Origin: Spizellomyces punctatus DAOM BR117
Taxonomy: Eukaryota
Reading direction: 5' to 3' (one strand)
Assembly (NCBI GenBank): GCA_000182565.2
Contig: KQ257451.1
DNA: 64,000 nucleotides
The notes under the pieces were generated by a model that had not been told where the DNA came from, did no database searches, and was given only the letters and a program-made list of their open reading frames with translations. The translations under genes and the position numbers were made by a program. Positions within the stretch are counted from its first letter, which is position 1; every line of letters starts with the position of its first letter. This document shows positions 1-58,642 of the stretch, piece by piece.

Positions 1-3000
1 ACTGCCACTAAGTTCCTTGTAGAGCTGGCCATGCCGTCGGTACTTATAGATGTGATCGGCTCAGTACTCGTTTCGATCGCCGAAGCGGGTCTTGAATGGC
101 CGCTCACGTTGGTATTGTGGGTGGCTACCGAAAACTTACGTTCCATTACAGCACAAAACTCTCTGCCCCAACAAAGCTGGAGAATGATATTCAAGCTTCA
201 ATAAAGCTTCACTTAAAATATCAGCTGTCAGATGGAAACCTACCAATTCGTCGATATCGATCTTTGGCGGAGTCAGCTCGACAATGCTGGCGGTAACTGT
301 TAATGGTGCGACTTCAGGTCCTCGGGGTCCCTCGGATGAATATTGTCTTTTTCTGAGAAAAGCTAATTCGTCAAGACTTCCCCTCTTACGAGTTGGCTTG
401 GACGAGCTTTGTGCACCATTATCGCGCGGCTGCGAACCCAACATGGCTGCACTGGAGTGAGAATTGACGTTGTGAAGCTGTCTCTTTCTCCTGGCGTCAC
501 GTTGAATCTGCGCTAAATGGCCCGTAGATGAAGCTCGCCGCTCCAGCCGATGGAGGGCCGAGCTCGTGACACTACTCGACACTGCGGAATATGAGGTCCC
601 CGTTTCATCCGTTACCAGCATATCTTCTGTATTAGATTGCGGGTTTGAGCTCACGTCGTCGGCTGATGACTCCAGGCTATGTTGTTGCCCGTCTACTGGA
701 CGCCCAAGGCCAATATACTCTTTGATATCGGGTGCGACACTATCCCCACCAACATCACCAATCCTCATTGCACTTGCCCCCATCGGCAGTCCTGAGCTAT
801 CCGCTTCGATCGTATCTGCGATTCCCATGAAATGATTGATATCCAACGAAGTTAATCGGCGTTGTACGGGAGGCGACAGTGTTTTCATAAGTTTACTGGC
901 ATTTACTTCGGAGCCGCTTCCTCGCTGTGGTTCTGAAAACGCGCGCGGCCGATTTTTGTGCTCAATGTCTTCATGCTTATCGTTTTCTCCTAACCCTAAT
1001 CGTGAGCTAGCTACAAGACTTCGCTCGAGCGAGGTCCGTGATTTCGCCGAAGCCTCCCGTCCCCGCTTCGGCCAAAATGTAGGCCGTTCCCCTGCCACGA
1101 ACTGGTCAATGTCAAGACTTGCTGGGTCAATAGCCATGGCACTTGCTTGGGGGTTGGTAGAGTGACGGGCCTCGATAGCATTATCGATTTCTATGAAACT
1201 AACACGATACGATCTGTCCAAGGCGTTCATGCTCCTTACCAACGCATGTGATGGTGCGGACTTCGCTTGTAGCGGGTGTGTACCTGCAATGGTTGTTCGA
1301 CCTTGTGGCGGAGAAGATGCCCCTATAGTCTCAAGCCCAGTAGACGCCGACGTGGCGTCGCCCGCCCCTAGCAGCATCTCGATATCTCTCTCTGTGTTTT
1401 CGTTTTCCGGAAGTATCTCCGTTGACTGCACAAGAGGGGTGCCGATATCGATGAACGCTCCAATGTCTTCCGCGGCACGGGTGTCATCTCTCAGGCAAAA
1501 AATCGGCGGTGTCTGCTCTCGCTTATGGCGCACGGAATCTGTAGTTAGCACTCTCTCCATACCGCCATCCAACACATTGGTGCGACTGCTGTCTCCGGCG
1601 ACACCCAGTGGATATTTCAGGCTACCAGTCGAGTGCCATACTGATTTCTTCTGCGTATCTGGAGACGTCATGTCCTGCCCCGCTAGCAATGGCAAGGAAT
1701 TGTTCAGTTTGTCTGCTGATTTTCGCTTGGGCATGAGTGGCTCCCCAATGAGGATCTTCGGAATAGGTGGGACTTGGTTCACCAGCAAATAATCATCTGC
1801 GTCAGTGAAAACACGGGGCAAACTTGCCAGAACGGACGCCGCTGGATTGGGATCCATCGACAAAACATCATCAATGTCCCTCGTTTCTTCTTCTGCAGGT
1901 GTAATAGTGGTGCTCGTAACAGGGGACTTCCGGTTAGGGGATACAGGAGAGGTTGCCGGCGAGTCTGGGCCATCCATTGGTGCAGTGCCGGTAATTCTTG
2001 CAGAGTGAAATCCAAGTCGATTCTTAACCCGAGGCTTCTCCATTCGTGTCGACGGTGAATGCTGGGACTGTGGAGGGTTTTCCGATGGCGATGCGCTTCC
2101 CAAGGCCAGCATATTATCGACATCAAAATCGTCAGTAGCTGCAGGAATATCTACTGTAAGCTTCGACCCAGTCCTTTCCCAGTTTTCACCGCTCCCAATC
2201 CCTGTTAATCTGTCAATATCCTCGCTAGCGGTGGTAAGAGTTTGAGGAAAATGGCTTTCGGGCAAAGAATTAGCAGGAGCAAGTGGTACTGGAGCTGCCA
2301 ACCCGAGCGTGCTTCTTCCGATGGTTGGAAAGTTGTCTGCAAATGACATAGACGACCCTCCCAGGCCTGCTGATAGTTGGGCAGAATTCGGTCTTACAGT
2401 ACTCAAGCGGAAGCCACTGGCCAAGCGGGTTGCCAAAGAATGGCGAGGAGTGGTAGATTGTTCCACCTTGCGGGCGTTTGCTGTCGTTAAGTCGTCAATG
2501 TCTCGTACGTTAAGTCGGTCGCCAGGGCCAGGGGAACGGAAACTGGAACTTCTAGTTACGACTCCAGATTTTTTTCCTTTAATTTTTTCCATAGCTGCGT
2601 CTGCCGCCTCCAAAATCGAATCAATGTCCTCGGCCTTGCTGACTATGTAAGGATAGGTGCTGGCGGGAGCGACCTGCTGCACTACCATTCTACCGTCATC
2701 TAGTCCCCAAGTGCTTCCAGAACGAGTTGGTTGAACTATTTCCACTACTGGAGTGACTTGAGTTCCACTTATTGTCGCTCCCCGCGCCCTACCTCGTCTT
2801 TGCCCGTCCGGCTTTGGTCTCTCATTTGTAGAAGCCCTCCCTTGAGATTTGTCTGTATCCGAAGCAGGAGGTTCTTCGGTCAATTTGCCGTCAGCTTCAC
2901 CAGAACGAGCCCGAAGCGCGGCATTCCACAAGCTGTTATGCGATCGGCCCAACGGCTTATCGGACACTGAGCGAGGCCTCAGTGCCGGAGAATTCGACAT
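1..3000 (-). CDS. Large Ser/Pro/Asp-rich protein of unknown function, 3' part outside the window
   Basis: 954-codon ORF from ATG at 3000. A GTAAGT donor near 139 suggests splicing to an open exon that runs off the left edge. No recognisable domain. Confidence 0.75.
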
Positions 3001-3164
3001 GACACTGTATGATGGCTTCCCGGCAAAATGTATATGTTATATGGTTTTTGGATGTAACCAACTCATCTGCCGTTGTTGCAAGAGCGGAGCAAACCAAAGC
3101 AATGTTTTAAAAATGCTAAAAATAGATGCAATTCAAGCGCCAAAGCAATATGTGGAATTTTTGA

Positions 3165-5171
3165 TCAGCTATAACGCGATTTCAATTTTATCAATAAATC
3201 AAGATCACTATCGGAAGGGTCGGTCGCAGTGTTCAGTAGCACATCTAAAATAGTAGAATTGAGAAGGTGTTTTCGTCTTTGCACACAACCACAACAACCA
3301 GCATACCGATGAATGCACTTATCAAATTAAAACCTTCACTGAACCTGGGAAGTTCCTGCGAAAGCGAGGCCACAATCTGCGCAAGTGGGGAACTGAATTC
3401 TTTTGGATATGGCGCTTCTATCGCCGATAGTATCTGTAAAATATACCTTTAGAGCCTCTGTCGCAACTGGCGACACGACCATCTAAAACGCAACTCACTG
3501 AAACAACAAAGTGTGTTCTGAGGGACTCATCTATGCTGCCGGTATGTTCTGAGATGTACTTCACAACCGGAACTGCGTACCCCACTTTCACCAAAAGGAC
3601 CAAGTGATCAAGGATCTTTTGCTTAATTTCTATCTGCAATTACGGGGATGAGTTCTATCTTCAAAGGGAAGACGTTATCTCTCCAACGTACCATCATCAA
3701 GGGATCTTGTGATTCGTATCCGCCCTCAAGTAAGGTAATCCAGAAAGTTGTGGCATGCTCCCAAAGAAACGGATGCCTTATGACCATCTAAAAATCGCGG
3801 TAGAAGTACAGCGTCAGCATGTTGAGTAACGGGCGAAGGATGTATAGGCGCTCTTACTTCATCCACAAGATTGAATGCCGGAGGAACTTCCTCTCGTAGC
3901 ATGGTCCACTCGTAAAAGCTACCATTGCTCAAGCAAGACGAGACCCAATGTAATAGTGCCATGGAGGTAATTTGTCGTCTAAACACAGTCGTGCGCCTTC
4001 AGCGACAGCTTGTCATCGGATGTGTCAAACTCGTATATTTACCTACTCTGTCGCCTGAAGAAATGCAGATATATGATCCTGCATTTGCGCCATGGATGTT
4101 ATACGGTTCGTCAATGCGTCAAGACTCTTTAGTGCTTCCAAAGTGCTCTTGAAATCGTCGTCGTCACCCTGTCAACGGGAATAGAAGTATGTTGAGTCGA
4201 TTATAACGCTTTCTCACGCTTAATAATAGAGTCTACTCACCACAGAGCCTCTTTTGCTGTCTTGATCTACGATGCTGACGGCGTAGGCCAGTAGCCACAG
4301 TGTTTCTTCCACATGTGCATTCGAACGACGAGGAACAAAGGTATCCGCGATCAGAGCATCTACATTACGGTGAGTGGATTGTATCTATAATCGTCTCCAC
4401 TTCAAGTTGTCAAAAGGTACTCACTGAGAATTGCAGCGTCCCGAAGAAAGACAGGTGATGGTGGGTCATTTGAGTTATAATGCTTATATAACTACACTCC
4501 CACATAGCATTAGCAGTGCTACTTAATTTGAATCCGTCCCAAATGTCAAACGCAATTGCTTTCCCTACCTTAACAATATCTCCCCCACTCGGTTTGCTGT
4601 CCCGCTGAATGCCGATCAAAGCCTCGATCACATCAAGGGCCGTTATGCCGCTGAACTTGACACCTTCCGTCAGCATCAATACCCTTCAAATGCATGTCAT
4701 CAGGTTGAGGTACCAAACTACATAATTACGTACAACAGCGTTGCTTACTCTTCTCGTTCTCCCAGACCCGCCGCCAACTCCTGCGATATTCGGTTAAGCA
4801 TTTGCCCCCAATGAATTCCATTTTCCGTCTCTCGTGACAATCCAGTTAGGATCGCTTGCGTTATAAAGTAGTTGTGCACATTGTTGTAACATAGGGGCTG
4901 CCGATCTTGTGATTAGTTAGAGTGCTTTGAGGTGGAAAGAGCTTGTCCTCGAAGCTTCACTCACACCCAGGTTTGTGGCGACCCATTCCTTAATATTCGT
5001 GTCATTGGGATCATGTAGCTTTGACAATACATTCACCAGCTGATTACAATATTCTGTCGTTTCTGTGGCTACTAATGCCATCGCTGCAAACGGTGAAGAA
5101 AGCAGCGTAGAGATCAGTGTAGAGATCAGGACAAAGTTGGGCTCTGGTGGGGTTGCCCAGTTTGTTGGCAT
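3165..5171 (-). CDS. NELFCD: Negative elongation factor C/D (TH1-like) homologue, multi-exon, 5' end uncertain
   Basis: Spliced exons give, in order: LCYNNVHNYFITQAIL..LNRISQEL, GDIVKLYKHYNSNDPPSPVFLR, LWLLAYAVS, SMALLHWV..AFNLVDEV, IEIKQKILDHLVLLVKVGYAVPVVKYI..IDESLRTHFV, ILSAIEAPYPKEF. These are colinear with TH1/NELF-CD blocks as I recall them. Confidence 0.82.
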
Positions 5172-5889
5172 GGTAATCGCTTACCTGAGAGTCGCGCCAA
5201 CAAGATGCCGATGAATATTTGTTCGGTCGTGAACCAGATGTCGCAGGAAAACGGCGCAATATCGAAGCCAAAGTCTCCGGTGTGTCAGTCTTGTTCATGT
5301 ATCGACACAATCTTTGCGCATTTGCGCGGGAATGTGGCATGGAGAACCTCTCCAATGCTTTCAGTTTGATGCACTACTGATGAAGAAGGAGGGCCTTTCA
5401 CCATGCCAGTTTCACAGAAGGGGAGTTTCGACAATCCAAAACTAACTTGTGCAGATTTTGGGACATATTCAAATCTCACACAGCTCAAGTAATGAAGGAT
5501 TAGACAGAATCAGTGAGGAGACTTCCGATGCGCCTATCCATCGCATGAAGGACACTGCTCAAAGAGCAGATTGTGCTTCACAAACTGGTGTGTAGCACTT
5601 TCCGTCTTTCTAGACAATCATTTCAGTTCCATTGTTATCACGTTGTTTACTACGAGAGCTCATTTAAGTATTGCTGGGCGCTTACATCTCATTTGTTATA
5701 GATCACTTATCAGTTAGAAATTTAAGTCCATTTGGTTGACAATCATCATTATTGAGTGATCGCTTTCTTGTCCGTTTATAGTGTAGAGGTGACAGAAAAT
5801 GGCACTAGCTACTACACCAGGGAATAAACTGGCGACAACCAACCCGGAAAAGCCAAGTAATTCCCTCCTTACAACCAACCAACTACTAC

Positions 5890-6167: not shown

Positions 6168-6707
6168 ATGATGGACTTGAGAGTCGCGATGAGAAGAGTT
6201 GCACAGATGCTTTGAGAGTCGAGGGATAAAGAAACAAGAGGGAAGAGACAAAAGGCCCCCATTTTATAGACCTTTGGCATGCGCCTCACCGCAGTTTAAA
6301 AAAAAACAACATTACATGCATGCCACAACCGCTTTGGGCGATAGATGGGGGTGCTGATTATGCGATATGATTAACCGGATTAATCCGGATAATAATGAGT
6401 CTTAGTGCCATTTTCCATCACCTCCACTATATGATTTGGAAGGGCGATGCTGCGATACTTATGACCCCTGTCGGCAAGGACACTTAAAGTCATTACCCAT
6501 TTAGCATTGTACGGGAAAAACACTTTCCTGCGTTCGTAAATAAAAGAAATAAAAGAAGCGATGCGAAATGGTGTCAAGGCATACCACAGAGGACAAAATG
6601 CGATGGGTATGATATAATTAGAACCGACAGAAGTGTTTGCAACCCAATTTTACTAATCCTCTCGTCTCACTAATCTAAACTGCACACCAGTCAGATTAAT
6701 TCGTCTC

Positions 6708-9700
6708 CTATTTCCTCCTGACAGTTCTGGGTGCCTTAATCTTTCGCCCAGCCGATCCGCCCTGTGTATTCGCCTGTGTTCCCCCAGCACCCATCGAAAA
6801 CAATGCCCCAGGTTGGGAAGCTCCAAAGCTGAATCCGTTCTGGGGAGGGGCCGCAGCTCCAAAGGTAAAAGAGGAGCCCGTTGGTGTTGTCGCTTGTTGT
6901 TGTTGTTGTTGTTGTTGCGGTTGTGGTTGTTGTGCCGGTTGTCCGCCGGCTCCAAAGCTGAACTGGAAACCACCTGCTTGAGGTGTACCCCCGCCAGCAT
7001 TTGAGCCAGGAGTACCTCCAAACGAAAAGCCAAATCCACCTGCTCTACCCGCCTGAGGCGTACCAAAGGAAGGCGTTGACGGTGGTCCGGCAGACGGATT
7101 CTGAGGTGCAGGAGATGCAGCGGGAGCGCCACCACCAAACTTAAAAGTACTTTGTCCGCCAAAGTTTGATTGATTGGCTCCCCCAATGGCTGAGCTGAAT
7201 GGTGCAGAGGGCGTACTCGGAGCCGGTGCAGTGGGATTTGGGGCAGTTTGTCCGGTCGCTCCAAACGCAAAGGATGGTTGTGCACCGCTGCCGACGCCAA
7301 AGGCGGGGGCAGGCGTAGTCGGTGTAGACGCTGCGGTTGAGGAATTGGTGCCGAAGCCGCCAAATGCCGGTGCTGACGACTGCGGTGTGACGGTAGTATT
7401 TGCGCCAAAGCCACCAAAGGCGGGTGTCGTAGGTGCAGGAGTTGGTGCGGCGACTTGCGTTCCGAATCCGCCAAAAGCAGGCGCCGCTGATGTAGGGGCA
7501 GAGGCGGACGTCTGTGGCTTAGCACCAAACCCGCCAAAAGTAGGTGCCGCGGAGGTAGGGGCAGTGGTCGCCGAACCCTCCGGTTTTCCTCCAAACCCTG
7601 CAAAACCCGGTGTGGAAGGGACCGGTGAAGCCGCCGCGGGAATCTGAGACGTCGCTCCAAAGCCGCCGAAGGTAGTGCCCGAAGGGGTAGACGCCGCGGG
7701 GTTAGCCGCAGCAGTAGCGTCGGTTTTACCGCCCAAGTGGCCAAATGACGGTGCACCAGGTGTAGGAGTAGACACCGTTGTTTGTGTGCTCCCTCCAAAG
7801 CCTGCAAATGCCGGCGCACTCGATTTCGCAACTGATGTGCTACTACCCGTAAACGAGAATGAAGGAGTTGAAGTCGTTGTCGTGGTGGGTGCTGTAACGC
7901 CAGCAGAGGGGGCAAAGGAGAGAGTGGGGGCAGTGGTCGTGGGAGGATTTCCTGTACCTCCAAATGAGAAAGGCGTTCCGGCTGGAGTAGACGTTGAGGG
8001 AGCAGAGGTTGCCACAGGAGGTGCACCTCCAAATGAAAACGAGGTTGGGGCGGCAGAGGCCGGAGGAGCTGCTGACGTGACGGCAGGAGCGCCTCCGAAA
8101 GCGGGAATGCTAATAGTCGTCGCCGATGTGGAAGCGGTTGGTGCTTCGGTCGAAGCAGGCGCTGCGGTAAATGAAAACGCCGGAGCGGTCGTTGTCGGGG
8201 CGGAAGTCGCTGTACCAGAAGTGCTTCCAAACAATGAGCTGGCCGCACTCGTGGCTGGTGTGGGACCTGGCAGGCTGCTTCCGCCGAAAGTAAAGGAAGC
8301 CGGTGCAGCAGCGGTTGTCCCAGCCACGGCAGTCGTACCTTGAGCTTGGCCTCCAGTGAAAGGTGCCGCGGCAGGTGCGGACCCGTTTGACTGGATGTCT
8401 CTGGCTGTCTGCTGCACCTCACCACTAGCATTTTTGGCCTCTAACTTCTGATAGCATAGCAAATGTTAAATGGATGACACAAAGGGAAGAAAATCCATAT
8501 TTTGTAACTACCTGTCTCTCGGCTTCCTGTTGACGTTTAAGTTCCTCCGCTTTCCGTTGTTCCTCCATCTTTCGTTGTTCCTCAGCGGCCTTACGTTGCT
8601 GCTCAGCCTTTCTCTCTTCTTCCAACTTTCGTTGTTCCTCAGCGGCCTTACGTTGCTGCTCAGCCTTTCTCTCTTCTTCCAACTTTCGTTGTTCCTCCAA
8701 TTTTTTCTGTTCCTCCAGCCGTCTCTGCTGTTCCTGTCTTTTCCGCTCTTCCTCTTCTCGCTTCTTCCGTTCCTCATCAGCCTTTCGCTGTTCTTCCAAC
8801 CGCCTGGCTTCTTCTGCCAATCTCTCTGCTTCTCGTTTCGCTTCCTCCTGCTCTTTGTATGCTCTCTCCGAATTCTCCATGATCTGCTGCGCCACTTCAT
8901 GTGTTTTGTTGTGATCTACAGGTGGCATGCGGGAAATGAGCCATCTTAGGTTATTGTTTGCATTCGGCCGGCTGGATTTCAGCTTGATACGGGAGCGTGG
9001 TGTCTTTGCACGGGGAGAGCCGTTGCGCGTAACTGGTGATAACTGGACAGATGGGCTGTACTGAACGGTTTCCACCTGACGACGCTTAGCAGGTGTAGGT
9101 GACGATTTTGGATCTTGATGGCGCTCTTCTCGGTCTACATCGTCAATGGCACGTTTAGAACCTGCTACCGTACTCTCATCCCGAGTAAGACTGTCGATGG
9201 GGATACGTTTTGGAGTTCCTGGTTTCATTGTTGGTCGGATACCTAGCCGACGACTGGCACTGGTGATCCAACCGTCTTCTGGCCTCAATTCTTCCATGAC
9301 TTTAAGCTCCCAGGGGGACGGACGGTTAGGTGTTTCTGGGGCGTTATTCGGTGTATGGTGTCGCGAAGCGACCTTTGGTGTTGCTCGAACTGGAGTGTTA
9401 TACACCTGGGTATTGGATCTGGGTTGAGGTGCTGGAGAACCGCTATGCCGATTCCCAAGCTCAAATAGACTTGCATTGCTATTATGTACCACACTAGAGC
9501 CGTAATCGCGGGTTGGACTGCCACTATGATCTGTGCTTTGGTTATGCGGGGGAGATCTTGCCCATCGGGGCGAGGGCGCTCGAACTTGCCGCTCTTGTAG
9601 AGGTGGACTCTCCAGTATAGATGTCTGCAAAAAACGGTGAGCATAGGTACTACCACCCAGAGAGTCTGGCACACCAACCTCCATCGCCACCGTCTCCGTC

Positions 9701-15648: not shown

Positions 15649-18600
15649 CTACTCCTTTCTTCGTCCAGGTGAATCCTTGGGTCTCGGCGGTAGCGGATGC
15701 CTCCGTTTCACGGACCGTTCATCTTCCTCCGCAGATCTCTTCATACGTCGCGGCGTCTCAGACTCGGATTTACGCGGTTTCCTAGACGGAGACAATGACT
15801 CTTGGTCATGAGAGTCTTTACGTTTGTCCCTTTCCGAACCAGGTTGGTTCATAGACCTCGAATCTTTGCCTTTGGCCGACAAGTTGTCCGTTTTGGTCTC
15901 ACGGGTACTCGAGGTTTCCCACTTACGCTCCTCCCGTCTAGCGTCGGTGGTCTTGTGGGTATCGCTTTCCAGACTCGTTCGTCGTGACGATCGAGAGGAC
16001 TCCTTTCTCCATACGTCCTTTCCTCTCCTACCTTCATCCTCCAGATGGGTCCGTCTCGACGGCGATGGGTGATGATCCTTCGATTCTTTATCCCTTCTGC
16101 CATCATCCTCCAAGGTATCTCGTCTCGACCGCGACGACCGGTGATCGTTAAATCCTTTCTCCTTCGTGGGATCATCCTCCAAACTAGTTCGTCTCGATCG
16201 TGCCGAGTCGTCATCCTTCGATTCTTTCCTCTGGTTATCATCTTCCTCCAGACCAGTTCTTCTCGTCCGCGAGGGAAAATGGTCCTTCGATTCTCTTTGC
16301 TTGCGGTCATCTCCGAAGCTAGTTCGTCTCGATCGCGACGAGCCGTCGTCCTTTGATTCTCTGATCTTCTTAGCATCATCCTCTAATTTGGTCTCTCTCA
16401 ATCGCGGCGAGGTATCATGCTTCACATCTTTAGCTGACTTTCTGGTTACGGATGGACTTTTCGGATCATCCAAGCGCTTCTCATCCGACCTAGTCCCTGA
16501 TTTTGTCTCCTCTTTTCGCTCTTCACGCTTCCCTATAAGATCCTCGTTATCTAAGCTTCGCCGCTTCGTCGGATGATCAGGTTCATCGTCACGTTTCCGC
16601 TTGTCACTGCCAGACTCTCTTGTTCCCAGTTTGTTCTCAGTGCTTGGGTCACGGGACGATGATTTGGGTTCATCTTTCTTCTCGCTGATGCGAACTTTTG
16701 CAGTTGAGCGGTGAATGTCTGGTTCAGACGCCTCCTCTTTACGGGTGGTTGAACGTTGAGATTCTTCCTCCTTATTTGAGTCCAAAAAATCCGATTTGGT
16801 CTCCATCTTGATACTTTCACGACCACCTCGAGGCTGTTCCCGTGCTGACTGGCGCTTGGCATCGCCGGAGGAAGCGCGATGCAACTTTGGTCGCTCTGAT
16901 ATGGGGAGGTCGGCGTCACCATGTCGATTGTCCCTTCGGTCTCCACGCCCTTGATCCCCCGTCCTCGATTCAGTCCTCTTTACCTCGCGCTCGGAAGTTT
17001 TTTCCGGAGTGCCGTGATTACGCACGTCCCGTCGTTGCCCTCCGCTGTCATCTTCCTTCTGACCTTGTGATGCAGCGACTGATCGACGGTCGGATTTGGA
17101 ATGCCCCTCATCTCCTTTGTACTCAGTCTGGTCTTTATCGCGAGGTTTATGTACACCGGGACTACGACGATCATAAACGACAGAGTCTCGTTGCTTCTCC
17201 TCTGACTTTGCATCCACTTTTCCTGCAGCCTTTTTCTCATCAGATTTTTTGTCCAATACCATGTGATTGTCTCTCTTATCCCTTTTGTGATCGTCGCTCT
17301 TCCTTCTGCTATCATGAATCCTTCTTCCTTCGCGATCATCCCGCTTGTTGTTATGGTGTTCCTTGTCCGTCCGTGTGTGATCGGACTTTTTGTCCACCAG
17401 TGCGCGATCATCTCGCTTATCATGTTTGTGGTCCTCACTCTTTCTGCCGCCATCTGCTTTCGTCCCCTCGCGATCATCCCGCTTGCTGCTTTTGTGATCC
17501 TCGTCCCGTCGTTTGTCATCCGATCTCTTGTCCGTCTCCCTACAATAGTCACGGGTATCATGTTTGTGTTCCTCGCTCTTTCTGCCGATATCTGTTTTGG
17601 TCCCCTCGCGATCGTCCGGCTTGCTGCTTTTGTGATCTTCGTCCCCTCTCTTGTCATCCGGCCTTTTATCTATCGCTCCACGATCTTCTCGCTTATCGTG
17701 TTTGCTACCTTCGCTCTTTCTGTTAGGATCAGATACTTTGTCCCCGTTGCGAGAATTCCCCTTGTCGTGTTTTTGTTCCTCATCCTTTTGTTTCTCGTCG
17801 GACATTTTATCTACCTCGCGGTCCTTTTGATTGTGGCGCTCGTGATACATACCCTTTCTCTTGTCATCAGCCTTCCTATCCAGGTATCGATTATCCAACA
17901 TTCCATGCGATCCATTTACGTCCCTTTCCTTCTCGTCAGCATTCTTCTCCACCGCTCGCTGTTCCGGCGTGTCGCGTGACTCCTCCTCCCTCTTCCGTCC
18001 CTCCCGCGCCCGTTCTCTATGACTCTGTCGATCGGAAGGGGTCCTATGACCTTGAGCAGGTTTCAAAATTGGCTCTTCGTTCTTTGCGTTTCTGTGGCTC
18101 CTTTCCTCCCTGGCCTCATGATTGGGAATGTAGACATCGCGACCTCGTCCTCTGTCATCCTTCGTGCTGCGTTCTCGGTCTCCGCGCCCGCTGGTCTCAC
18201 TAGTAACGCTATAATGATCATGACCGGACCTTCGCCCTCTGTCATCCTTTACTGACGATGCGGCATGACTTTCACGCTCGGTCCGGTCGTCTCGCCCACC
18301 GCTCTCGCCACCAGGGACGTACCGGTCGTGCCCACCTTTTTGCCACCTCTCATCCTTCCCCACCGAATCTGCCCGATTCCCATATCTACTCGAGCGGTCC
18401 CCATTCCAATCGTCCCGCTCATCCCTAATTCCAGAATTATACCGATCCAAGCGATCTCCCCCTCTTCCTGACATCCCGACGTCGGCAAGTCGTCGCCTTC
18501 GAACCACCTTGCCAGATCTCAATCTAAAGGCATCTGAATGAACGGGTAGCGGCGGTGGAAGATGCTCCAGTGGTGCCAGGCCTGGTATCATTCTGGACAA

Positions 18601-20616
18601 GTTGGCTCGCTCATTAAAAGCTCGGGCGGCTTGTTCGTGCCGGAGTCGCATGCCATATTCATGAGATTCTTCCCATGTCGGAAAACTGGAGATGGACCAA
18701 ACGCTCAATATTCCATTCTCGATTGAAAATATAATTTAACATACTCTGAAGTATTGGGTTCCGCGGCCCTAGGCTCTACCAAGAAGTAATCGTGCCGAAG
18801 AGCCTCATCGGCAGTTGGCCGTCGGTCAGGGTCCAGATTTAGAAGATAGTCGATGAACGCAATCGTTTGAAAATCCAACCTGGCGTAGTGATATAACCAA
18901 GTGAGCAAGAATGAGCAAATTTTGATGTCTACACCGCGGGTGAATGCTGCTTACCGTTCACTAGAGTAAGCATCCCAAATCCTTCTCGGCTGTGGCTGAG
19001 GAGTGACAGTTCCATCTTCCAACTTTGGAAACTTCCCCTGACGTTTTCCATTAGAACTTCGATAATCCGCCGGATCAGGTGTCCCGCATATCGAAAAGAT
19101 TTTTTCAATCAATTCCACTTCCGTAGCACCTTTGAATATAGGCCGTCTGTCCCACATTTCAGCAAAGATACAACTGTCGAATGTATGATTAACTCTTCAC
19201 GATTGAAGTATAGTAGCAATTCTGGCAATAACTCACCCTATTCCCCACATATCAACTGCAGCAGTATAATCTTGCTTCCCCAGTAGAAGCTCGGGAGCTC
19301 GATACCACAGCGTCACCACTGTGGGGGTCAGCCTCCGACCCGCGCTTGGATCAAATGAGCGCGCCAATCCAAAGTCTGCGATTCTGAGATTTCCACCGTT
19401 GTCAATGAGGATATTTGCTGATTTCATGTCACGGTGGAGTATATTCCGCTTTATACGAGCGCAGCATGAGTTCACGCCTTATCTGACCAATATGATATCA
19501 TCACTAACTTGGTGGAGATACAGTATGCCATCCAGCATCTGCTTTGTGAATGATTTAATGTGAGATGGGTCGAATGTCACTTGAGGATTGTCTAGTAGTC
19601 CGCTAAGATCGTGCTTCATGTACGGAAAGACCATAAATAATGTCGCCACTTCCTCAGCCCGACGGTCACCTTGAAGATGAAAGCTAACTCAATCGGCCGG
19701 TCGTCTTAAAATTAGAAGAAGACAGAATAGCGCATACCTCTTCGCACAGCAATCTCTTCGAGATTAATGAGGTTGGGGTGACGAAGAGACTTCAAGATTG
19801 CGATTTCTCGTACAGCAGTAATAGGTAGCTAGAATATAAACAGCTTGTTAGGCAACAAGCACCAGACGTGAAAATCAAAATACAAGTACCCACTCCATCT
19901 CTGTCCTTGTGCAGAATGATCTTCTTCAGTGCTACTTTTCTTCCGGTAGATTTATGCTTTGCTATAGTTACCTCCCTTTGAGATGATAATAAGCCGCAAG
20001 TCCACCTTCCGGTAAATTGAACGTACTCAACTCACCCAAATGTCCCTTCCCCGACCTTCTTAGAGCTCTCAAACTCACTTATGTCCGAGGTTCCTGTGTA
20101 GGCACTAAGCGCTTGTGACAGAGGGACGTCAACGTCGTGGAAATTAGGAGATAGATATGGCGTTGGGGGGCTTTTGAAAAGTTCGAGAAACTCGGGCGGT
20201 GGGGAAGGGCGACGAACGTCTGGTGCAGCACGTGATTTGTGATGCGCTGATGGTCGAGGAGACGTGCGATTCGACTCTGGGGGAAGAGATGTATCCCTCG
20301 TTGACGATTCGGACATCTCACCTTCTTCTAGTTCATTTGAAGGACTGCGTTGTTTTGTATCTGGCTTGATTTTTTTTACATCTGGTTTTCCTTCGTCGCC
20401 CACCTCCGAGATTGGCCTCTTGACTCCAGCAGCGGGTTCTGAGGACCTTTCCTTCGGTTGAAGCTTTTCCCCATTACCATCCTCCTGGCTGACCTCTGCG
20501 GGCCGCTTGAATGTGTCTGGTTGCGGTGATGTCGATTCCAGTGACGTTTCCTTATGGTCCGGTGAGTTCGTCTTTGCGGATTTGTCATTGACGGCACTAC
20601 TGGTTTCTTCCGCCAT
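15649..20616 (-). CDS. BUR1: BUR1/CDK9-family CTD kinase with ~1000-aa charged C-terminal tail
   Basis: Exons give [67 protein letters not shown]. The last exon is ORF 15649..18708. Confidence 0.88.
15960..16400 (-). repeat. Degenerate ~66-75 bp coding repeat ([16 protein letters not shown]) in the kinase tail
   Basis: About six recurrences of a (t/c)cgtctcga-like core, visible in both DNA and protein. Confidence 0.75.
17240..17760 (-). repeat. ~138 bp (46 aa) coding tandem repeat, about 4 copies, in the kinase tail
   Basis: A tatcatgtttgtg-like anchor recurs at ~17277, 17418, 17556 and 17694. Confidence 0.85.
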
Positions 20617-29424: not shown

Positions 29425-29905
29425 NNNNNNNNNNNNNNNNNNNNNNNNNNNNNNNNNNNNNNNNNNNNNNNNNNNNNNNNNNNNNNNNNNNNNNNNNNNN
29501 NNNNNNNNNNNNNNNNNNNNNNNNNNNNNNNNNNNNNNNNNNNNNNNNNNNNNNNNNNNNNNNNNNNNNNNNNNNNNNNNNNNNNNNNNNNNNNNNNNNN
29601 NNNNNNNNNNNNNNNNNNNNNNNNNNNNNNNNNNNNNNNNNNNNNNNNNNNNNNNNNNNNNNNNNNNNNNNNNNNNNNNNNNNNNNNNNNNNNNNNNNNN
29701 NNNNNNNNNNNNNNNNNNNNNNNNNNNNNNNNNNNNNNNNNNNNNNNNNNNNNNNNNNNNNNNNNNNNNNNNNNNNNNNNNNNNNNNNNNNNNNNNNNNN
29801 NNNNNNNNNNNNNNNNNNNNNNNNNNNNNNNNNNNNNNNNNNNNNNNNNNNNNNNNNNNNNNNNNNNNNNNNNNNNNNNNNNNNNNNNNNNNNNNNNNNN
29901 NNNNN
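29425..29905. other. Assembly gap (N run)
   Basis: Run of n. Confidence 1.
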
Positions 29906-29923: not shown

Positions 29924-32900
29924 TTACATCTTATAGTAGTGCCTACTAGCTTTACTAGTTATGATTGGTACAAGTATCGCAGAACCAATGAATTGATGTA
30001 GAAATCTTCCAGTATAGACTATAAATATACTCTTGTATCTCATCTGCGTATGCTGAGGATGCTCCTTGACATGTCGTAAGAAGTGACGGATTTTCTTGAT
30101 TATCGGCTTCTTCAACGCGAAAGGTGTAGGCGTTGGGCTAATTGAAACTGATCCCAGTGACGCTCCCGATGACATTCTCGACGATACGGTAGGGGAAGAT
30201 GGATATGGAGATCCGGACGTGCTTGAAAAGGTAGTGGATGACGAAGTAGCGAATGCTTCCAGTTGGGACAAATACGTATTTGCCGTATCAAAATTGTTGT
30301 AATATTGTGAATACATCTTCAGGAATGGTGCAATGGCCAAGAAGACAGACCCGATGGGCTGCGATTGTTGATTGCTCTTTTTTATCAAGTCCGGTAAGAG
30401 ATGGCTATTGCACAGAATAAATCGAACGGAGGATCGTCAGTGACAACGCAAGATTCATCTCGCGCGATAATACAGGTGACTTACTCCCGATGGATCATCA
30501 GAATGCTTTTTACGTTGCCGAAGAGCGCATCCATGTCCCTTTGACTCAGCCATTGTTCTTTTTGCATCCTATTCATATACAACTCCACAAGATTTTGTAA
30601 CTCTCGAACATAGGTCTTCTCCGTCGCCACCATTTCACCAATAACTCGGGCTCTTCTCTCCAGGGACGTCGTGGATGGGGGTTTCACAGAAGGCACCTGC
30701 TCGTCAGCCAATGAAGAGAACGACGAGGTATATGGTTGAGTCTCTTGAACTTGATGGTGAGCTGAGTTGGGATCAAGGTCATGGACGTCCCGGAGAAAGG
30801 AAAGCAGCCGCTGAAGTGCCTTCTCCGAGTGACCCTCGCATCGTAGCCGTATCGGTCGTGCAAACTCCTCAATCAAGCTATACGAAAGCTCAGTACTTAG
30901 TCGGGAACCGAAACGGGCCGGGGGAAGGTACTCAGAATACCCTGATGATATGGCTGCAAAAAATCGGTTAGCGCCATGGGGCCAACATGTGTTAACACAG
31001 ACTCAGCAAACGTATGATGGTAATACTTACAGCTGTCTGTAACGCTCCTGATCAGTGGATACGCTTCAGGCGATGCGCTAAGGTCGCCAGTTCGTTTCGC
31101 CCATCCGACTCCGCTATCCGCACTTGGAAGCCTCTTCCTGGTATCAGCATCATCGCCTTCGCGATCCCCCTCTTCGCCTAATTGGCTGGTACTTTTATTT
31201 GATAATAGACTTCCATAGCTTAGACGGTCCCCCTTTTCAGCGTTCATTGCATAAATTCTTCGTAGCATTCTTTCAGCTTCCGCGGCTCGATCAGATGTAT
31301 TTGCCTCCATGACAGCTTTCGCTGCATCAACATCGACATTCAGCAAAGTTTGGACGATACCCCTGGCGAAAGTTGGCTCCAGGGGATTGTCCATCAGAAA
31401 TAGGCCTTTCAAAGTCCTATGCAGAAGTCCTAGAGACGGCGGTAAGAATCGGAGGTGATTATGTGACAAATCGACACATTCCAGAGACTCGGTATGCTTG
31501 AATAGCGAAAAGGGTAGATTTGTGATTCGATTTCTGCTCAAGTCCAAAACCTCCAACTTTCTCAACTTTCCTATGCCATGGCCTACATCGAAAATCGCAT
31601 TCTCTGCTAGGTAGAGCTCTCGAAGTTGACATAGATTCGCTATGTCGTTTGGAATCCGTTCAAGTTGGTTTCCTGTTAGATTCAAGACCAGTAGTTTCGG
31701 CATCTCATTGAAAATAATTGTGGGAAACTCGATCAAGCGGTTTCGATCGAGATAGAGATGCGTCAGATTTGCAAGATTGACTTGGACGGTAGAGGGAAAT
31801 CCAGCCAACTCTTTCCTCGACAGGTCAAGGAAATATGACGTGATATCAAATTCACCTGCAAGAATGGGCAATCGAAGGAACCCAAACTCGCCATCTGTCA
31901 TACTGTCCGTATCCAGATCCGCAAGGATGGTTGGCAGAACGTCCCCGTGCGCTAACCGAATAGTGTCGGCAGATATTCTGGTTCTTAACGGTGGCTTTGC
32001 GTCATCCCCTTCCGGGGGAGGCGCGGAAGTTGATCGCGGAAGGGGCACAAAGGGAGGACGCATTGGTGGATATCGCAGGGGATGGGGACCATTTGGGTAT
32101 CGTTTGAGTAGTAACATGTCGGGTCCGGGTTGAGAATGTCGAGCAGCAGTTCCTCGAATAGGCTTTGGGCTTAAGGGTTGCGAGAAGTAGTCTTCCTCGT
32201 CTGGAGATTGTGAATTTCCAGCCGGAGACTGGACAACATTGATTGCGCTATACTCGCCGCCAGTCACCTCATTTTGAGGCGCTTCAGATGACAAATAAGA
32301 ACTCAACAATGGATTATGAACTGAAGCAGGTACTTCTGGTAGCACCCAACTTGCTCGTCCATTCTGCATCCCAGTACTAGAGGGCACTCGTGTCAAGCCG
32401 GATCCGCCAAGTTTTGGCGACGAACGCTGGTTCTCCTCAAGAACCTGAGATAGCCCGCTGTTATTGCTGGTATCAGACCACCGATTGAGTTGCCTTCAAG
32501 TATGAGGCATTGCCGTCAGACGAGATGTACTTGGCACGGGTATGAACTTTACCTATCACTTACCGCTTTAAATCATGAATGGTTTGATCCTTCTCCACGA
32601 TCGTTGCACCTATCTCAGCCAAGCGCCTTCTTGCGTCTTCCACTTCCTTCTGTAATCCATCGCGGGCAGCGGACAAATCATCGTAGCGGGTACCCATCGT
32701 CGCCAATTCAGTGCGCAATACATTTAACTGCTGCATGTACATCGACCCATCGTTTATCGTCATCGATGTCATACCCTGTTCGGATTGTGGTGACGAATCC
32801 TCTCTGTTTCCGGTACCGGCTTGTTTTGCCACGAGACTTCACAAAATGTCATTGAGAATGCACAATATAGAGAGCGTTCTGTATACACCAATCACCAACC

Positions 32901-34789
32901 TTTCCAGCTCCAAAATACGGTCTTCTAGTTTTACAATCTTTACGGCTCGCTCTTCGCTGATTTGATTGGGTGAAATAGTATCCTCATTGGTCTGTGAATC
33001 CTCCAGCTGCCGCCGAAGTTGTTCCACTTGCTCTGTTTTCAGCGCCATTTCTTCACGCGCGGTTTGTAGTAACCTTTCCAGCTCCAAAATACGTTCTTCT
33101 AGTTTTACAATCTTTACGGCTCTTTCTTCGCTGATTTGATTGAGTGAAATAGTATCCTCATTGGTCTGTGAATCTTCCAGTTGCCGCCGAAGTTGTTCCA
33201 CTTCCTCGGTTTTCAGCGCCGTTTCTTCACGCGCGATTTGTAGTTCCCTTTCCCATTGCTGACGATGAAGTTGTGTTTGCTCCTCAATCTGTTCGATATG
33301 ATGCAAGAACTCGTCCTTTTGCTTTGCTAGAGTGCTACACATAAAATAGCACAATTAGTAAAATAATCACTCTTGCCAGCTTCAATCTCCTGCCATACTT
33401 TTCTAATCTACTAATTTCAGTATCTTTTTGCTCTGCAAGATCTACCGTCCTGGCCGATTCCACCTCCATGCTGGATTTCAATGCCTTCTGCAGCTCCTCA
33501 ACTTGTTGTTCCAATTGCTGGGCTCGTCGGCTGGCCTCTCTTTCCCGACTCTCTACTCGTTTTAATTCCCGTGCGAGTTCCTGTCGATTTCGTTCCTGTC
33601 CGTCTCGTTGGGCGAGTGCACTAACTAGCTCTCCGCGTAGGGTATCAAGCTCCTGCTTTGCAGCATCAAAGCGTTGCGTAGTGTCGCGAAGATTCCGGCT
33701 TAGTGTCTCGAACTCCTCAAACTGCAATGTTGTCTTGCTTGCGTTTCCTGCCATATCCTGAAGTTGCTTCATCAGCTCGTCTCTCACTGACGCTAAAACC
33801 TCCCGTTGAAGGACAGCCTCCGCCAATTCTCCCTCTTGCAACTCGGCATCATGCTTGGTTTTCTCGAGAAGTGCCTCCAGCTGTGCAACACGTTGTCGAA
33901 GAGTTTCGTTGTCATGGCTTATCTCAGTAAGATGATCCTCAATCTTGCCATTTCCTACAGGTGTCGTTGTTATCGGCGACTGTGATGGTGGTTTCCGTAT
34001 CCTTGTTGCCGGTTTCGCAGGAGAGCTTTGACCGGATTCTTGAGGACCAGCAAATATGGCCGCAATTGCCTGAACACGGCCGCGTCCGCTAGGCCGAGTG
34101 GGAGATGTGGATGGAGATATCCTGCGGCCGGGAGGAGGAGTGGACGATGTTACTCTTGTGGATGACGTTTTTGCTCCCGCTTTTCGTCCTATACTAGAAG
34201 CTGGAGCTGCTTTAGATGGGCCTCCATCTACGGAAGCTTTGGAGGCCTCGCTGTCCGCTCGACTTCGGGCTTCTGCCCTCTTATTTACTCCGACACTCGT
34301 CCCGCCATTGGTCGCTTTTTTCTCCTTTGTAGAATTTGGGTTCGGTGTCGAAGGACGTCTCTCCCTCGCACTTGGCGGAGGCGGACTTTTGGTAACCAGA
34401 CCATCACCATTCATAGGTGTCGGCCGCCGAACTGTTCCTCCCGCATCGTTCCCCCGTCTCTTGCCATGCTTTGGCGTACCATGCCTTGATAAATACTCTT
34501 CTACCTCGCGCTGCTTTCGTGGTGACCTACATAGCTCGCTTAAGAACGCATAGTGTCCAGCACAAATCCGCTCTTCGTCTTTGACACCCTTAAGTTCGGC
34601 AAAAATGCGATCTAGCTGACGAGCTTCCGCTTTATCCTTCAACGCTCTCCAGACCCGCCCTTTCGGAACCCCAAGCGCCTGACAAGGTTTGGCACTAAAC
34701 TCCTTAAATGGGGTTGCCGTCACATCTATCCCTTTAAAGGGACAGACAAAGCTAACATTGCTTATTTCGCCAACTGTAGAACACATCAT
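29924..34789 (-). CDS. Large coiled-coil + leucine-rich-repeat + RhoGEF (DH) protein; 3' end in or near the gap, 5' end uncertain
   Basis: LRRs (LxxLxLxxNxL) in 30897..32396. DH motifs EMVATEKTYVRELQNL, ALFGNV, PFLKMYSQY. The coiled-coil exon 32560..32832 splices in frame (CG|G) into the LRR exon. Confidence 0.8.
32897..33245 (-). repeat. Tandem 174-bp (58 aa) internal duplication
   Basis: LQxAREExALKTExVEQLRRQLEDSQTNEDTISxNQISEERAVKIVKLExRILELERL occurs twice with few substitutions. Confidence 0.93.
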
Positions 34790-57263: not shown

Positions 57264-58642
57264 ATGCCCCAAGAACCCACACCCCATACCATAAAACGTA
57301 ACTCCATATCNNNNNNNNNNNNNNNNNNNNNNNNNNNNNNNNNNNNNNNNNNNNNNNNNNNNNNNNNNNNNNNNNNNNNNNNNNNNNNNNNNNNNNNNNN
57401 NNNNNNNNNNNNNNNNNNNNNNNNNNNNNNNNNNNNNNNNNNNNNNNNNNNNNNNNNNNNNNNNNNNNNNNNNNNNNNNNNNNNNNNNNNNNNNNNNNNN
57501 NNNNNNNNNNNNNNNNNNNNNNNNNNNNNNNNNNNNNNNNNNNNNNNNNNNNNNNNNNNNNNNNNNNNNNNNNNNNNNNNNNNNNNNNNNNNNNNNNNNN
57601 NNNNNNNNNNNNNNNNNNNNNNNNNNNNNNNNNNNNNNNNNNNNNNNNNNNNNNNNNNNNNNNNNNNNNNNNNNNNNNNNNNNNNNNNNNNNNNNNNNNN
57701 NNNNNNNNNNNNNNNNNNNNNNNNNNNNNNNNNNNNNNNNNNNNNNNNNNNNNNNNNNNNNNNNNNNNNNNNNNNNNNNNNNNNNNNNNNNNNNNNNNNN
57801 NNNNNNNNNNNNNNNNNNNNNNNNNNNNNNNNNNNNNNNNNNNNNNNNNNNNNNNNNNNNNNNNNNNNNNNNNNNNNNNNNNNNNNNNNNNNNNNNNNNN
57901 NNNNNNNNNNNNNNNNNNNNNNNNNNNNNNNNNNNNNNNNNNNNNNNNNNNNNNNNNNNNNNNNNNNNNNNNNNNNNNNNNNNNNNNNNNNNNNNNNNNN
58001 NNNNNNNNNNNNNNNNNNNNNNNNNNNNNNNNNNNNNNNNNNNNNNNNNNNNNNNNNNNNNNNNNNNNNNNNNNNNNNNNNNNNNNNNNNNNNNNNNNNN
58101 NNNNNNNNNNNNNNNNNNNNNNNNNNNNNNNNNNNNNNNNNNNNNNNNNNNNNNNNNNNNNNNNNNNNNNNNNNNNNNNNNNNNNNNNNNNNNNNNNNNN
58201 NNNNNNNNNNNNNNNNNNNNNNNNNNNNNNNNNNNNNNNNNNNNNNNNNAAACTGTTGGATAGTACCGAGTACGTTTTACTGTACTATTTACATCCTTGC
58301 CATATCTTATCCATATTTATGCAGAGTGTATACCCCAGATTTACGTTTCTGACTATTCACGGCCTTGGAGCGGCTATTACCCGAGCTATTGAACTTGCAT
58401 TGTCCTTGCGTGAAAAGAATCCTGATCGGATAGCATGGACGATAACGACTTCTAGTGTGGTCTTGGTAGATGATATTGAACCAGAGGATGTGGTATGTCG
58501 TTTTGGTGTGCGTGTTGGGAGGAGAGGTCTGCGGCTAACGCACGCAAAATGATAGGAAGCCGATATCTATTCCGAACCAAGACAAAATTCGGCGATACAC
58601 ATCCGTGTGGTAAAAGTAGGGACGTCGCCCAAGCTTGAGTAG
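57264..58642 (+). CDS. POP7: RNase P/MRP subunit POP7/RPP20 (Alba fold), interrupted by a gap
   Basis: IHGLGAAITRAIELAL, TSSVVLVDDIEP, RQNSAIHIRV. Start 57264 is tentative. Confidence 0.85.
57311..58249. other. Assembly gap (N run)
   Basis: Run of n. Confidence 1.

Follow-up and report, generated by a model that had tools for sequence, protein, structure and literature searches.

The window, by which we mean the whole 64,000-nucleotide stretch of DNA analysed here, contains a TH1/NELF-C/D gene that is real, intact and built of 11 exons, and we have next to no doubt that this locus of Spizellomyces punctatus is a true TH1/NELF-C/D orthologue. Taking the data together, the best explanation, which we hold with good confidence, is a chytrid NELF-C/D orthologue that is spliced and transcribed and encodes a short form of the protein, the shorter build being shared across its clade.

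The coding region occupies 3165-5081 on the minus strand, where ten GT-AG introns of 58-77 nt separate 11 short exons, and once joined the exons form an open frame of 1248 nt, with 415 codons and a stop. The original prediction had described scattered short open reading frames (ORFs) that give TH1-like blocks after splicing, and the stop-to-stop ORFs are indeed short from 3165 to about 5200. The exons were placed with tblastn and their boundaries were chosen by a script, which used GT/AG sites, kept the frame open and took the best fit to P0001, a 415-residue GenBank entry ('hypothetical protein SpCBS45565_g01678 [Spizellomyces sp. palustris]') that carries the Pfam TH1 domain, PF04858. Fitted in this way on the minus strand are exon 1 (5081-4965), exon 2 (4897-4749), exon 3 (4683-4569), exon 4 (4491-4425), exon 5 (4359-4241), exon 6 (4168-4047), exon 7 (3978-3858), exon 8 (3787-3692) and exon 10 (3433-3307). 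Exon 9 (3633-3499, minus strand) encodes 45 residues that form the best-conserved block and align with human NELF-C/D at about residues 480-530, and exon 11 (3244-3165, minus strand) closes with the stop codon at 3167-3165, base 3165 being the final base of that codon. The donors read, in order, GTGAGT, GTAAGC, GTAGGG, GTGAGT, GTGAGT, GTAGGT, GTAAGA, GTACGT, GTGAGT and GTATGC. The spliced product is identical to P0001 at 405 of 415 residues (97.6%) and thus differs at ten, with 100% identity in exon 9, which makes the source of the window a close relative of S. 'palustris'; the other chytrid relatives named below are 30-55% identical to P0001.

Support from RNA comes from one run (X7) that carries the same species label, of which about 6 in 100 was read; it comes from a 3'-biased, sense-stranded library. 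The orientation of the library was taken from the highly expressed upstream neighbour, whose 3' end lies at 5731-5800 on the minus strand, because there the T-runs that precede 5731 (46 reads) and 5734 (13 reads), marking a poly(A) site at about 5731-5734, and a sense depth of 214 (5726-5800) are found on the same read orientation. Sense reads cover the 3' end of the TH1 gene (3094-3657), with the depth falling from 12.8 (3094-3187) to 0.68 (3564-3657) and then to zero over 3658-4409; it is 0.2-1.0 in some of the 5' bins, and about one read lies over 5082-5171. In ten reads ending at 3245 there are loose letters, and the first 12 of these are those of the plus strand from 3308; with one ambiguous C, they read as the join 3244|3307 between exon 11 and exon 10. 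These ten reads cross the last intron, intron 10 (3245-3306, minus strand, 62 nt, GTATGC...TTTTAG), and we therefore conclude that the gene is transcribed and that its last intron is spliced as modelled, this being the sole junction (one of the ten) that was checked against RNA. On the other side of the stop codon the sense depth drops from 12.8 (3094-3187) to 0.15 (3000-3093), so the transcript ends near 3100 and the 3' untranslated end is placed at 3094-3164 on the minus strand. Antisense reads lie over exons 1 and 2 (4786-5067, plus strand) at a depth of 10-20, higher than the gene's own sense signal (at most 13) in the same 3'-biased run. The plus strand has no notable ORF at 4786-5067, and the signal may stem either from a library artefact or from an antisense transcript with its end near 5067.

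Beyond the scattered look of the ORFs, nothing speaks for a decaying pseudogene or for a non-fungal contaminant, and we give this explanation almost no weight. The frame is open through all 11 exons with canonical splice sites, the product is nearly identical to the protein of a congener, and the locus is transcribed and spliced. Its neighbours are ordinary eukaryotic housekeeping families, and low-coverage DNA contigs from three runs with the same organism label show 0 differences to the region. The genus Spizellomyces belongs to the Spizellomycetales (Chytridiomycota, Fungi), and the near-identity of the product to a Spizellomyces protein, together with a tree in which named chytrid rows are nearest to it within a starred clade, supports the fungal origin of the contig that had been assumed.

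The assignment to TH1 draws on profile, fold and tree. P0001 matches Pfam TH1 with E 6.5e-45 and 154.3 bits (the cut-off is 24), residues 14-370 corresponding to profile positions 197-551 of 579, and since P0001 is the near-identical congener protein this answers strongly, for the product as well, the profile search that the original prediction had proposed. Single ORFs of the window carry part of this signal. The ORF of exon 9 (3418-3639) alone gives 28 bits and E 1.2e-6 against Pfam TH1 (profile positions 481-529 of 579), and the ORF at 4745-4912 gives a colinear and weak match (E 0.081). A control profile was made from the C-terminal parts of 41 non-chytrid TH1 proteins and run against the 2769 six-frame ORFs of at least 12 residues in the window. 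Its seven best matches, from E 8.7e-13 (the exon-9 ORF) to 0.016, all fall in the TH1 gene and are colinear, the next match in the window having E 0.56; seven of the 11 exons are recovered. The claim of at least six colinear TH1 blocks was therefore correct, because all seven of these matches lie in order within the gene.

Against the chain sequences of the PDB, phmmer with P0001 as query finds seven distinct sequences, every one of them 'Negative elongation factor C/D' of human or mammalian origin (E 1.4e-28 to 6.3e-28), with residues 18-363 aligned to human 208-552. An AlphaFold model built from an alignment of nine sequences is all-helical, with a mean pLDDT of 82.9 and a pTM of 0.75. When this model was compared with the PDB by Foldseek, ranks 1-10 were all NELF-C/D chains (E 4.9e-12 to 2.4e-10, probability 1.00), with TM scores by query of 0.56-0.62, an rmsd of 11-12 Å and about 22-23% identity. 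The superposition is not tight, and the high rmsd fits hinge differences. Next in rank is a ciliary central-pair protein (E 7.4e-3), and armadillo/HEAT and importin proteins come after it. Sequence and predicted fold thus both point to the solved human NELF-C/D, the structural comparison that had been suggested. In a family tree (a quick IQ-TREE maximum likelihood run, LG+G4, 100 rows) the product sits beside P0001 on an end branch of 0.019 and is nested in starred clades of 2, 3, 14 and 26 rows. Profile, fold and tree agree in confirming a NELF-C/D gene, and the proposal that an early-diverging fungus retains at least part of NELF is upheld to that extent.

The product has no counterpart of the N-terminal 150-190 or so residues of animal NELF-C/D (TH1 profile positions 1 to about 196, human residues 1 to about 190). 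The original prediction left it open whether this part is lost or very divergent, and our searches agree with that description. When the N-terminal modules of 41 full-length relatives were turned into a profile, it gave no match among the 2769 six-frame ORFs of the whole window, its best hit having E 1.1 at 30847-30897 with none in 5082-5731; the control profile, made from the C-terminal parts of these same 41 proteins and run in the same way, finds seven exons. The N-terminal profile likewise has no match in P0001-P0007 or P0009. Searching upstream of exon 1 with the full-length relative P0008 by tblastn gave E 9.4, which does not rise above the noise elsewhere in the window. An upstream frame picked out by eye as possible N-terminal TH1 exons, 5285-5509 and 5126-5284, was rejected: a TGA stands at 5287-5285, the tblastn value is the same E 9.4, and the N-terminal profile has no match there. 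We consider it probable that the module is truly absent from the protein.

The evaluation of the 5' end requires some care. The reading frame of exon 1 is open over 5180-4917 and holds a second in-frame ATG at 5171-5169, 30 codons ahead of ATG 5081. The original prediction began at this upstream codon and so carried a 30-codon N-terminal extension (5082-5171, minus strand). In the S. 'palustris', Phlyctochytrium and Geranomyces records, all three from the Spizellomycetales, the start methionine matches ATG 5081. Our 5' end thus follows the gene models of other annotators, and these may share one blind spot. A putative leader intron of 101 nt can be drawn at 5084-5184 on the minus strand (GTAAGC...TTTGCAG), ending 2 nt before ATG 5081; judged from its splice motifs, it is possible that this is an intron in the 5' leader. 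ATG 5171 falls inside it, and 5082-5171 may belong to a leader or an intron and not to the coding sequence.

The gene model could instead have been cut short at its 5' end, with divergent or very short N-terminal TH1 exons hidden in 5082-5730 or with translation starting at ATG 5171. The additional 30 codons that this ATG would provide are in its favour, as is the fact that the donor and acceptor at 5184 and 5084, a good pair, would join the upstream frame 5284-5185 in phase with exon 1. By eye, the stretch around 5300-5370 loosely recalls the 'FDPKKAD' found near residue 125 of full-length relatives, and RNA depth is insufficient to locate the 5' end. However, the upstream frame is closed by the TGA at 5287-5285 with no ATG after it, the tblastn search with P0008 stays at noise level, and the N-terminal profile is silent over 5082-5731 although its C-terminal counterpart detects most of the exons. 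Only 650 nt separate ATG 5081 from the neighbour's poly(A) site, which bounds promoter and leader to 5082-5730. Set beside the shared start methionine and the family-wide pattern described below, these observations make a truncated model very unlikely in our view, and we retain ATG 5081 as the probable start, and with it the short protein.

The short form is not peculiar to this gene. A profile search of 1.84 billion representatives returned 842 family members at E <=0.001, and the tree was made from 100 rows with a near-full C-terminal domain, drawn from the matches listed, earlier finds and the product of the window. The N-terminal module is present in 70 of the 100 rows and absent in 30. 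The product and every named chytrid row fall into one clade of 26 (SH-aLRT 100), to which the name 'chytrids' is given on the strength of six named members; the named relatives are Phlyctochytrium, Batrachochytrium, Geranomyces, Borealophlyctis, Terramyces and Kappamyces. In 25 of the 26 rows the module is missing, which adds to the case for N-terminal loss and against a truncated model. Full-length proteins make up 15 of the 17 rows of the sister clade. Of the other five short rows, which are scattered through the tree, three have a full-length row as their direct partner, the pattern expected of truncated gene models. We conclude that the shorter build is common to the whole chytrid-containing clade of the family.

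The sole member of the clade that keeps part of the module is P0033 (517 residues), in which profile positions 56-158 are matched with 51 bits, and because of this protein the loss is not uniform within the clade. P0033 may represent an intermediate stage of the loss. Its make-up is rich in Asn, Lys and Ile, and this composition suggests that it comes from an AT-rich genome.

Entries in GenBank give the same picture. Chytrid TH1 proteins are deposited as S. 'palustris' SpCBS45565_g01678, Batrachochytrium dendrobatidis BATDEDRAFT_88143 and a 'TH1 protein' of Phlyctochytrium arcticum, and as 'Negative elongation factor C/D' from Geranomyces michiganensis, Borealophlyctis nickersoniae, Terramyces sp. 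and Kappamyces sp. Like the product of the window, these are short (268-480 residues), have no N-terminal module and belong to the same clade. A profile search of named proteins gave seven proteins among the matches listed and no further relatives; in the ESM Atlas all TH1 clusters were from animals, and it gave no taxa for the sister clade.

Human NELF-C/D (NELFCD, TH1L) is known from the NELF-AC core (PDB 5L3X, chain B) and as chain W of 6GML, 7PKS, 8UHA and 9J0N, which are paused Pol II-DSIF-NELF complexes. The chytrid protein shares with it the helical-repeat fold and homology over residues 18-363 (human 208-552); it has 415 residues against 590 in human and no N-terminal module. The TH1 match begins at profile position 197, and the protein is therefore equivalent to the segment of human NELF-C, residues 183-590, that according to the extracts of PMC4940160 was crystallised with NELF-A. 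What is retained is thus the NELF-A-binding core. The same extracts place crosslinks from human NELF-C to NELF-B in helices 12', 13', 18' and 19', a region that is kept and well aligned in the chytrid protein. They also assign crosslinks to NELF-B and NELF-E to K66 and K125, which lie in the uncrystallised N-terminal region and fall in the part that is absent here.

RNA binding by NELF-C has been mapped to patches 1-4 (R291, K315, K371, K372, K374, K384, K388, R419 and R506; PMC9068813). In our hand-read pairwise alignment, whose loops are uncertain, the aligned place is basic in three of the nine (K315, K374 and K384), and at two further places the basic residue is next door.

These comparisons bear on whether the protein works within a NELF complex at all. 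It could be a true TH1 homologue that acts outside one, NELF-B having been lost in chytrids, and that has another role or a non-pausing role at the polymerase. The absence of the module with K66 and K125 would agree with this, as would the low number of basic residues in the RNA patches and the fact that no partner is seen among the scanned ORFs of the window (neither COBRA1 nor any other NELF family was matched by Pfam in 69 of its 109 ORFs of at least 110 residues). On the other hand, the helices through which human NELF-C also crosslinks to NELF-B are kept, and NELF-B and NELF-C/D are reported together as a wide core in the available portions of a preprint by Chivu et al. (bioRxiv 10.1101/2023.02.19.529146). 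Conservation of the retained part throughout a deep chytrid clade points, moreover, to an interaction surface under constraint. We regard a role outside NELF as unlikely.

By analogy with the human complex, action of the chytrid protein in a NELF-like complex on Pol II seems to us an evenly balanced proposition. In human, the passages of PMC11881899 at hand describe a NELF-AC lobe by RPB8 that blocks the secondary channel where TFIIS binds, and a NELF-BE lobe by RPB5. The chytrid protein would, on this analogy, sit with a NELF-B-like and perhaps a NELF-A-like partner on the Pol II-DSIF elongation complex, in a position near the secondary channel where it could slow early elongation. The outcome would be the weak pause of a 'core NELF', as proposed by Chivu et al. 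for unicellular eukaryotes. Its ties to the NELF-B-like partner may be looser or different. We infer a core-NELF-like role with altered NELF-B ties because the 12', 13', 18' and 19' surfaces are kept and the K66/K125 region is absent. We suggest, tentatively and with the balance of probability against it, that in the zoosporic fungi of the chytrid clade NELF-C/D has shed its N-terminal third and been cut down to just the NELF-A-pairing core on the polymerase side, the complex being wired differently from that of animals.

Among the neighbouring ORFs (69 of the 109 were scanned), Pfam matches fall in common families of eukaryotes, namely hexokinase, acyl-CoA dehydrogenase, eIF2A, PSMD3, a PAN2-type UCH protein, DnaJ and Rpp20. 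Downstream, an uninterrupted ORF of 966 residues at 136-3036 on the minus strand is rich in Ser, Pro and Thr and has no Pfam match; it begins about 100 nt downstream of the end of the TH1 transcript, so the gene spacing is very tight. Upstream, long minus-strand ORFs at 6656-8465 also have no Pfam match. The same is true of a 1028-residue ORF at 15652-18735 on the minus strand, where a 138-nt tandem repeat lies at 17330-17704 (2.7 copies, 76% match); another ORF contains a 174-nt repeat at 32897-33253 (2.1 copies, 93% match). Runs of N at 29425-29905 (481 bases) and 57311-58249 (939 bases) account for the low-GC bins and the long multi-frame 'ORFs' of the window. TRF and tRNA scans of the window gave nothing that bears on the TH1 gene.

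Chivu et al. (bioRxiv 10.1101/2023.02.19.529146), in the sections available, describe a wide distribution of NELF-B and NELF-C/D among eukaryotes, with secondary loss in S. cerevisiae and S. pombe, and associate the two subunits with higher pausing indexes. The chytrid gene resembles their 'core NELF' (NELF-B and NELF-C/D) in being a case of a non-animal lineage that keeps NELF-C/D. The words 'chytrid' and 'Spizellomyces' occur 0 times in the main text of that preprint, and chytrids may be in its supplementary tables; a short N-terminus has no mention in those sections. Our literature search found no paper that discusses NELF in chytrids and no pausing data for any chytrid. The novelty that the original prediction implied for such a gene in a fungus is not borne out: chytrid NELF-C/D is already named in GenBank, and a wide and ancestral distribution of NELF-B and NELF-C/D is stated in the accessible text of Chivu et al. 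The finding is therefore known in substance, and the NELF-C/D gene itself is correct but ordinary. The lack of the N-terminal module throughout the clade is possibly a small, unreported detail.

What the present work contributes is a clean and checked gene model, which adds to the published picture of a NELF-B/NELF-C/D core that predates animals and was lost in the model yeasts. Genetic transformation has been published for Spizellomyces (PMC7213984, seen in extract), and the organism therefore offers a fungal system for deleting a non-animal NELF subunit and measuring the effect on pausing. The N-terminal loss across the clade is relevant to the question of which parts of NELF-C/D the ancestral function requires. 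If the cut-down, rewired complex that we tentatively suggest is true, the chytrid NELF is perhaps a minimal or NELF-B-independent form, and these fungi would provide a natural deletion experiment on how a 'core' complex slows the polymerase.
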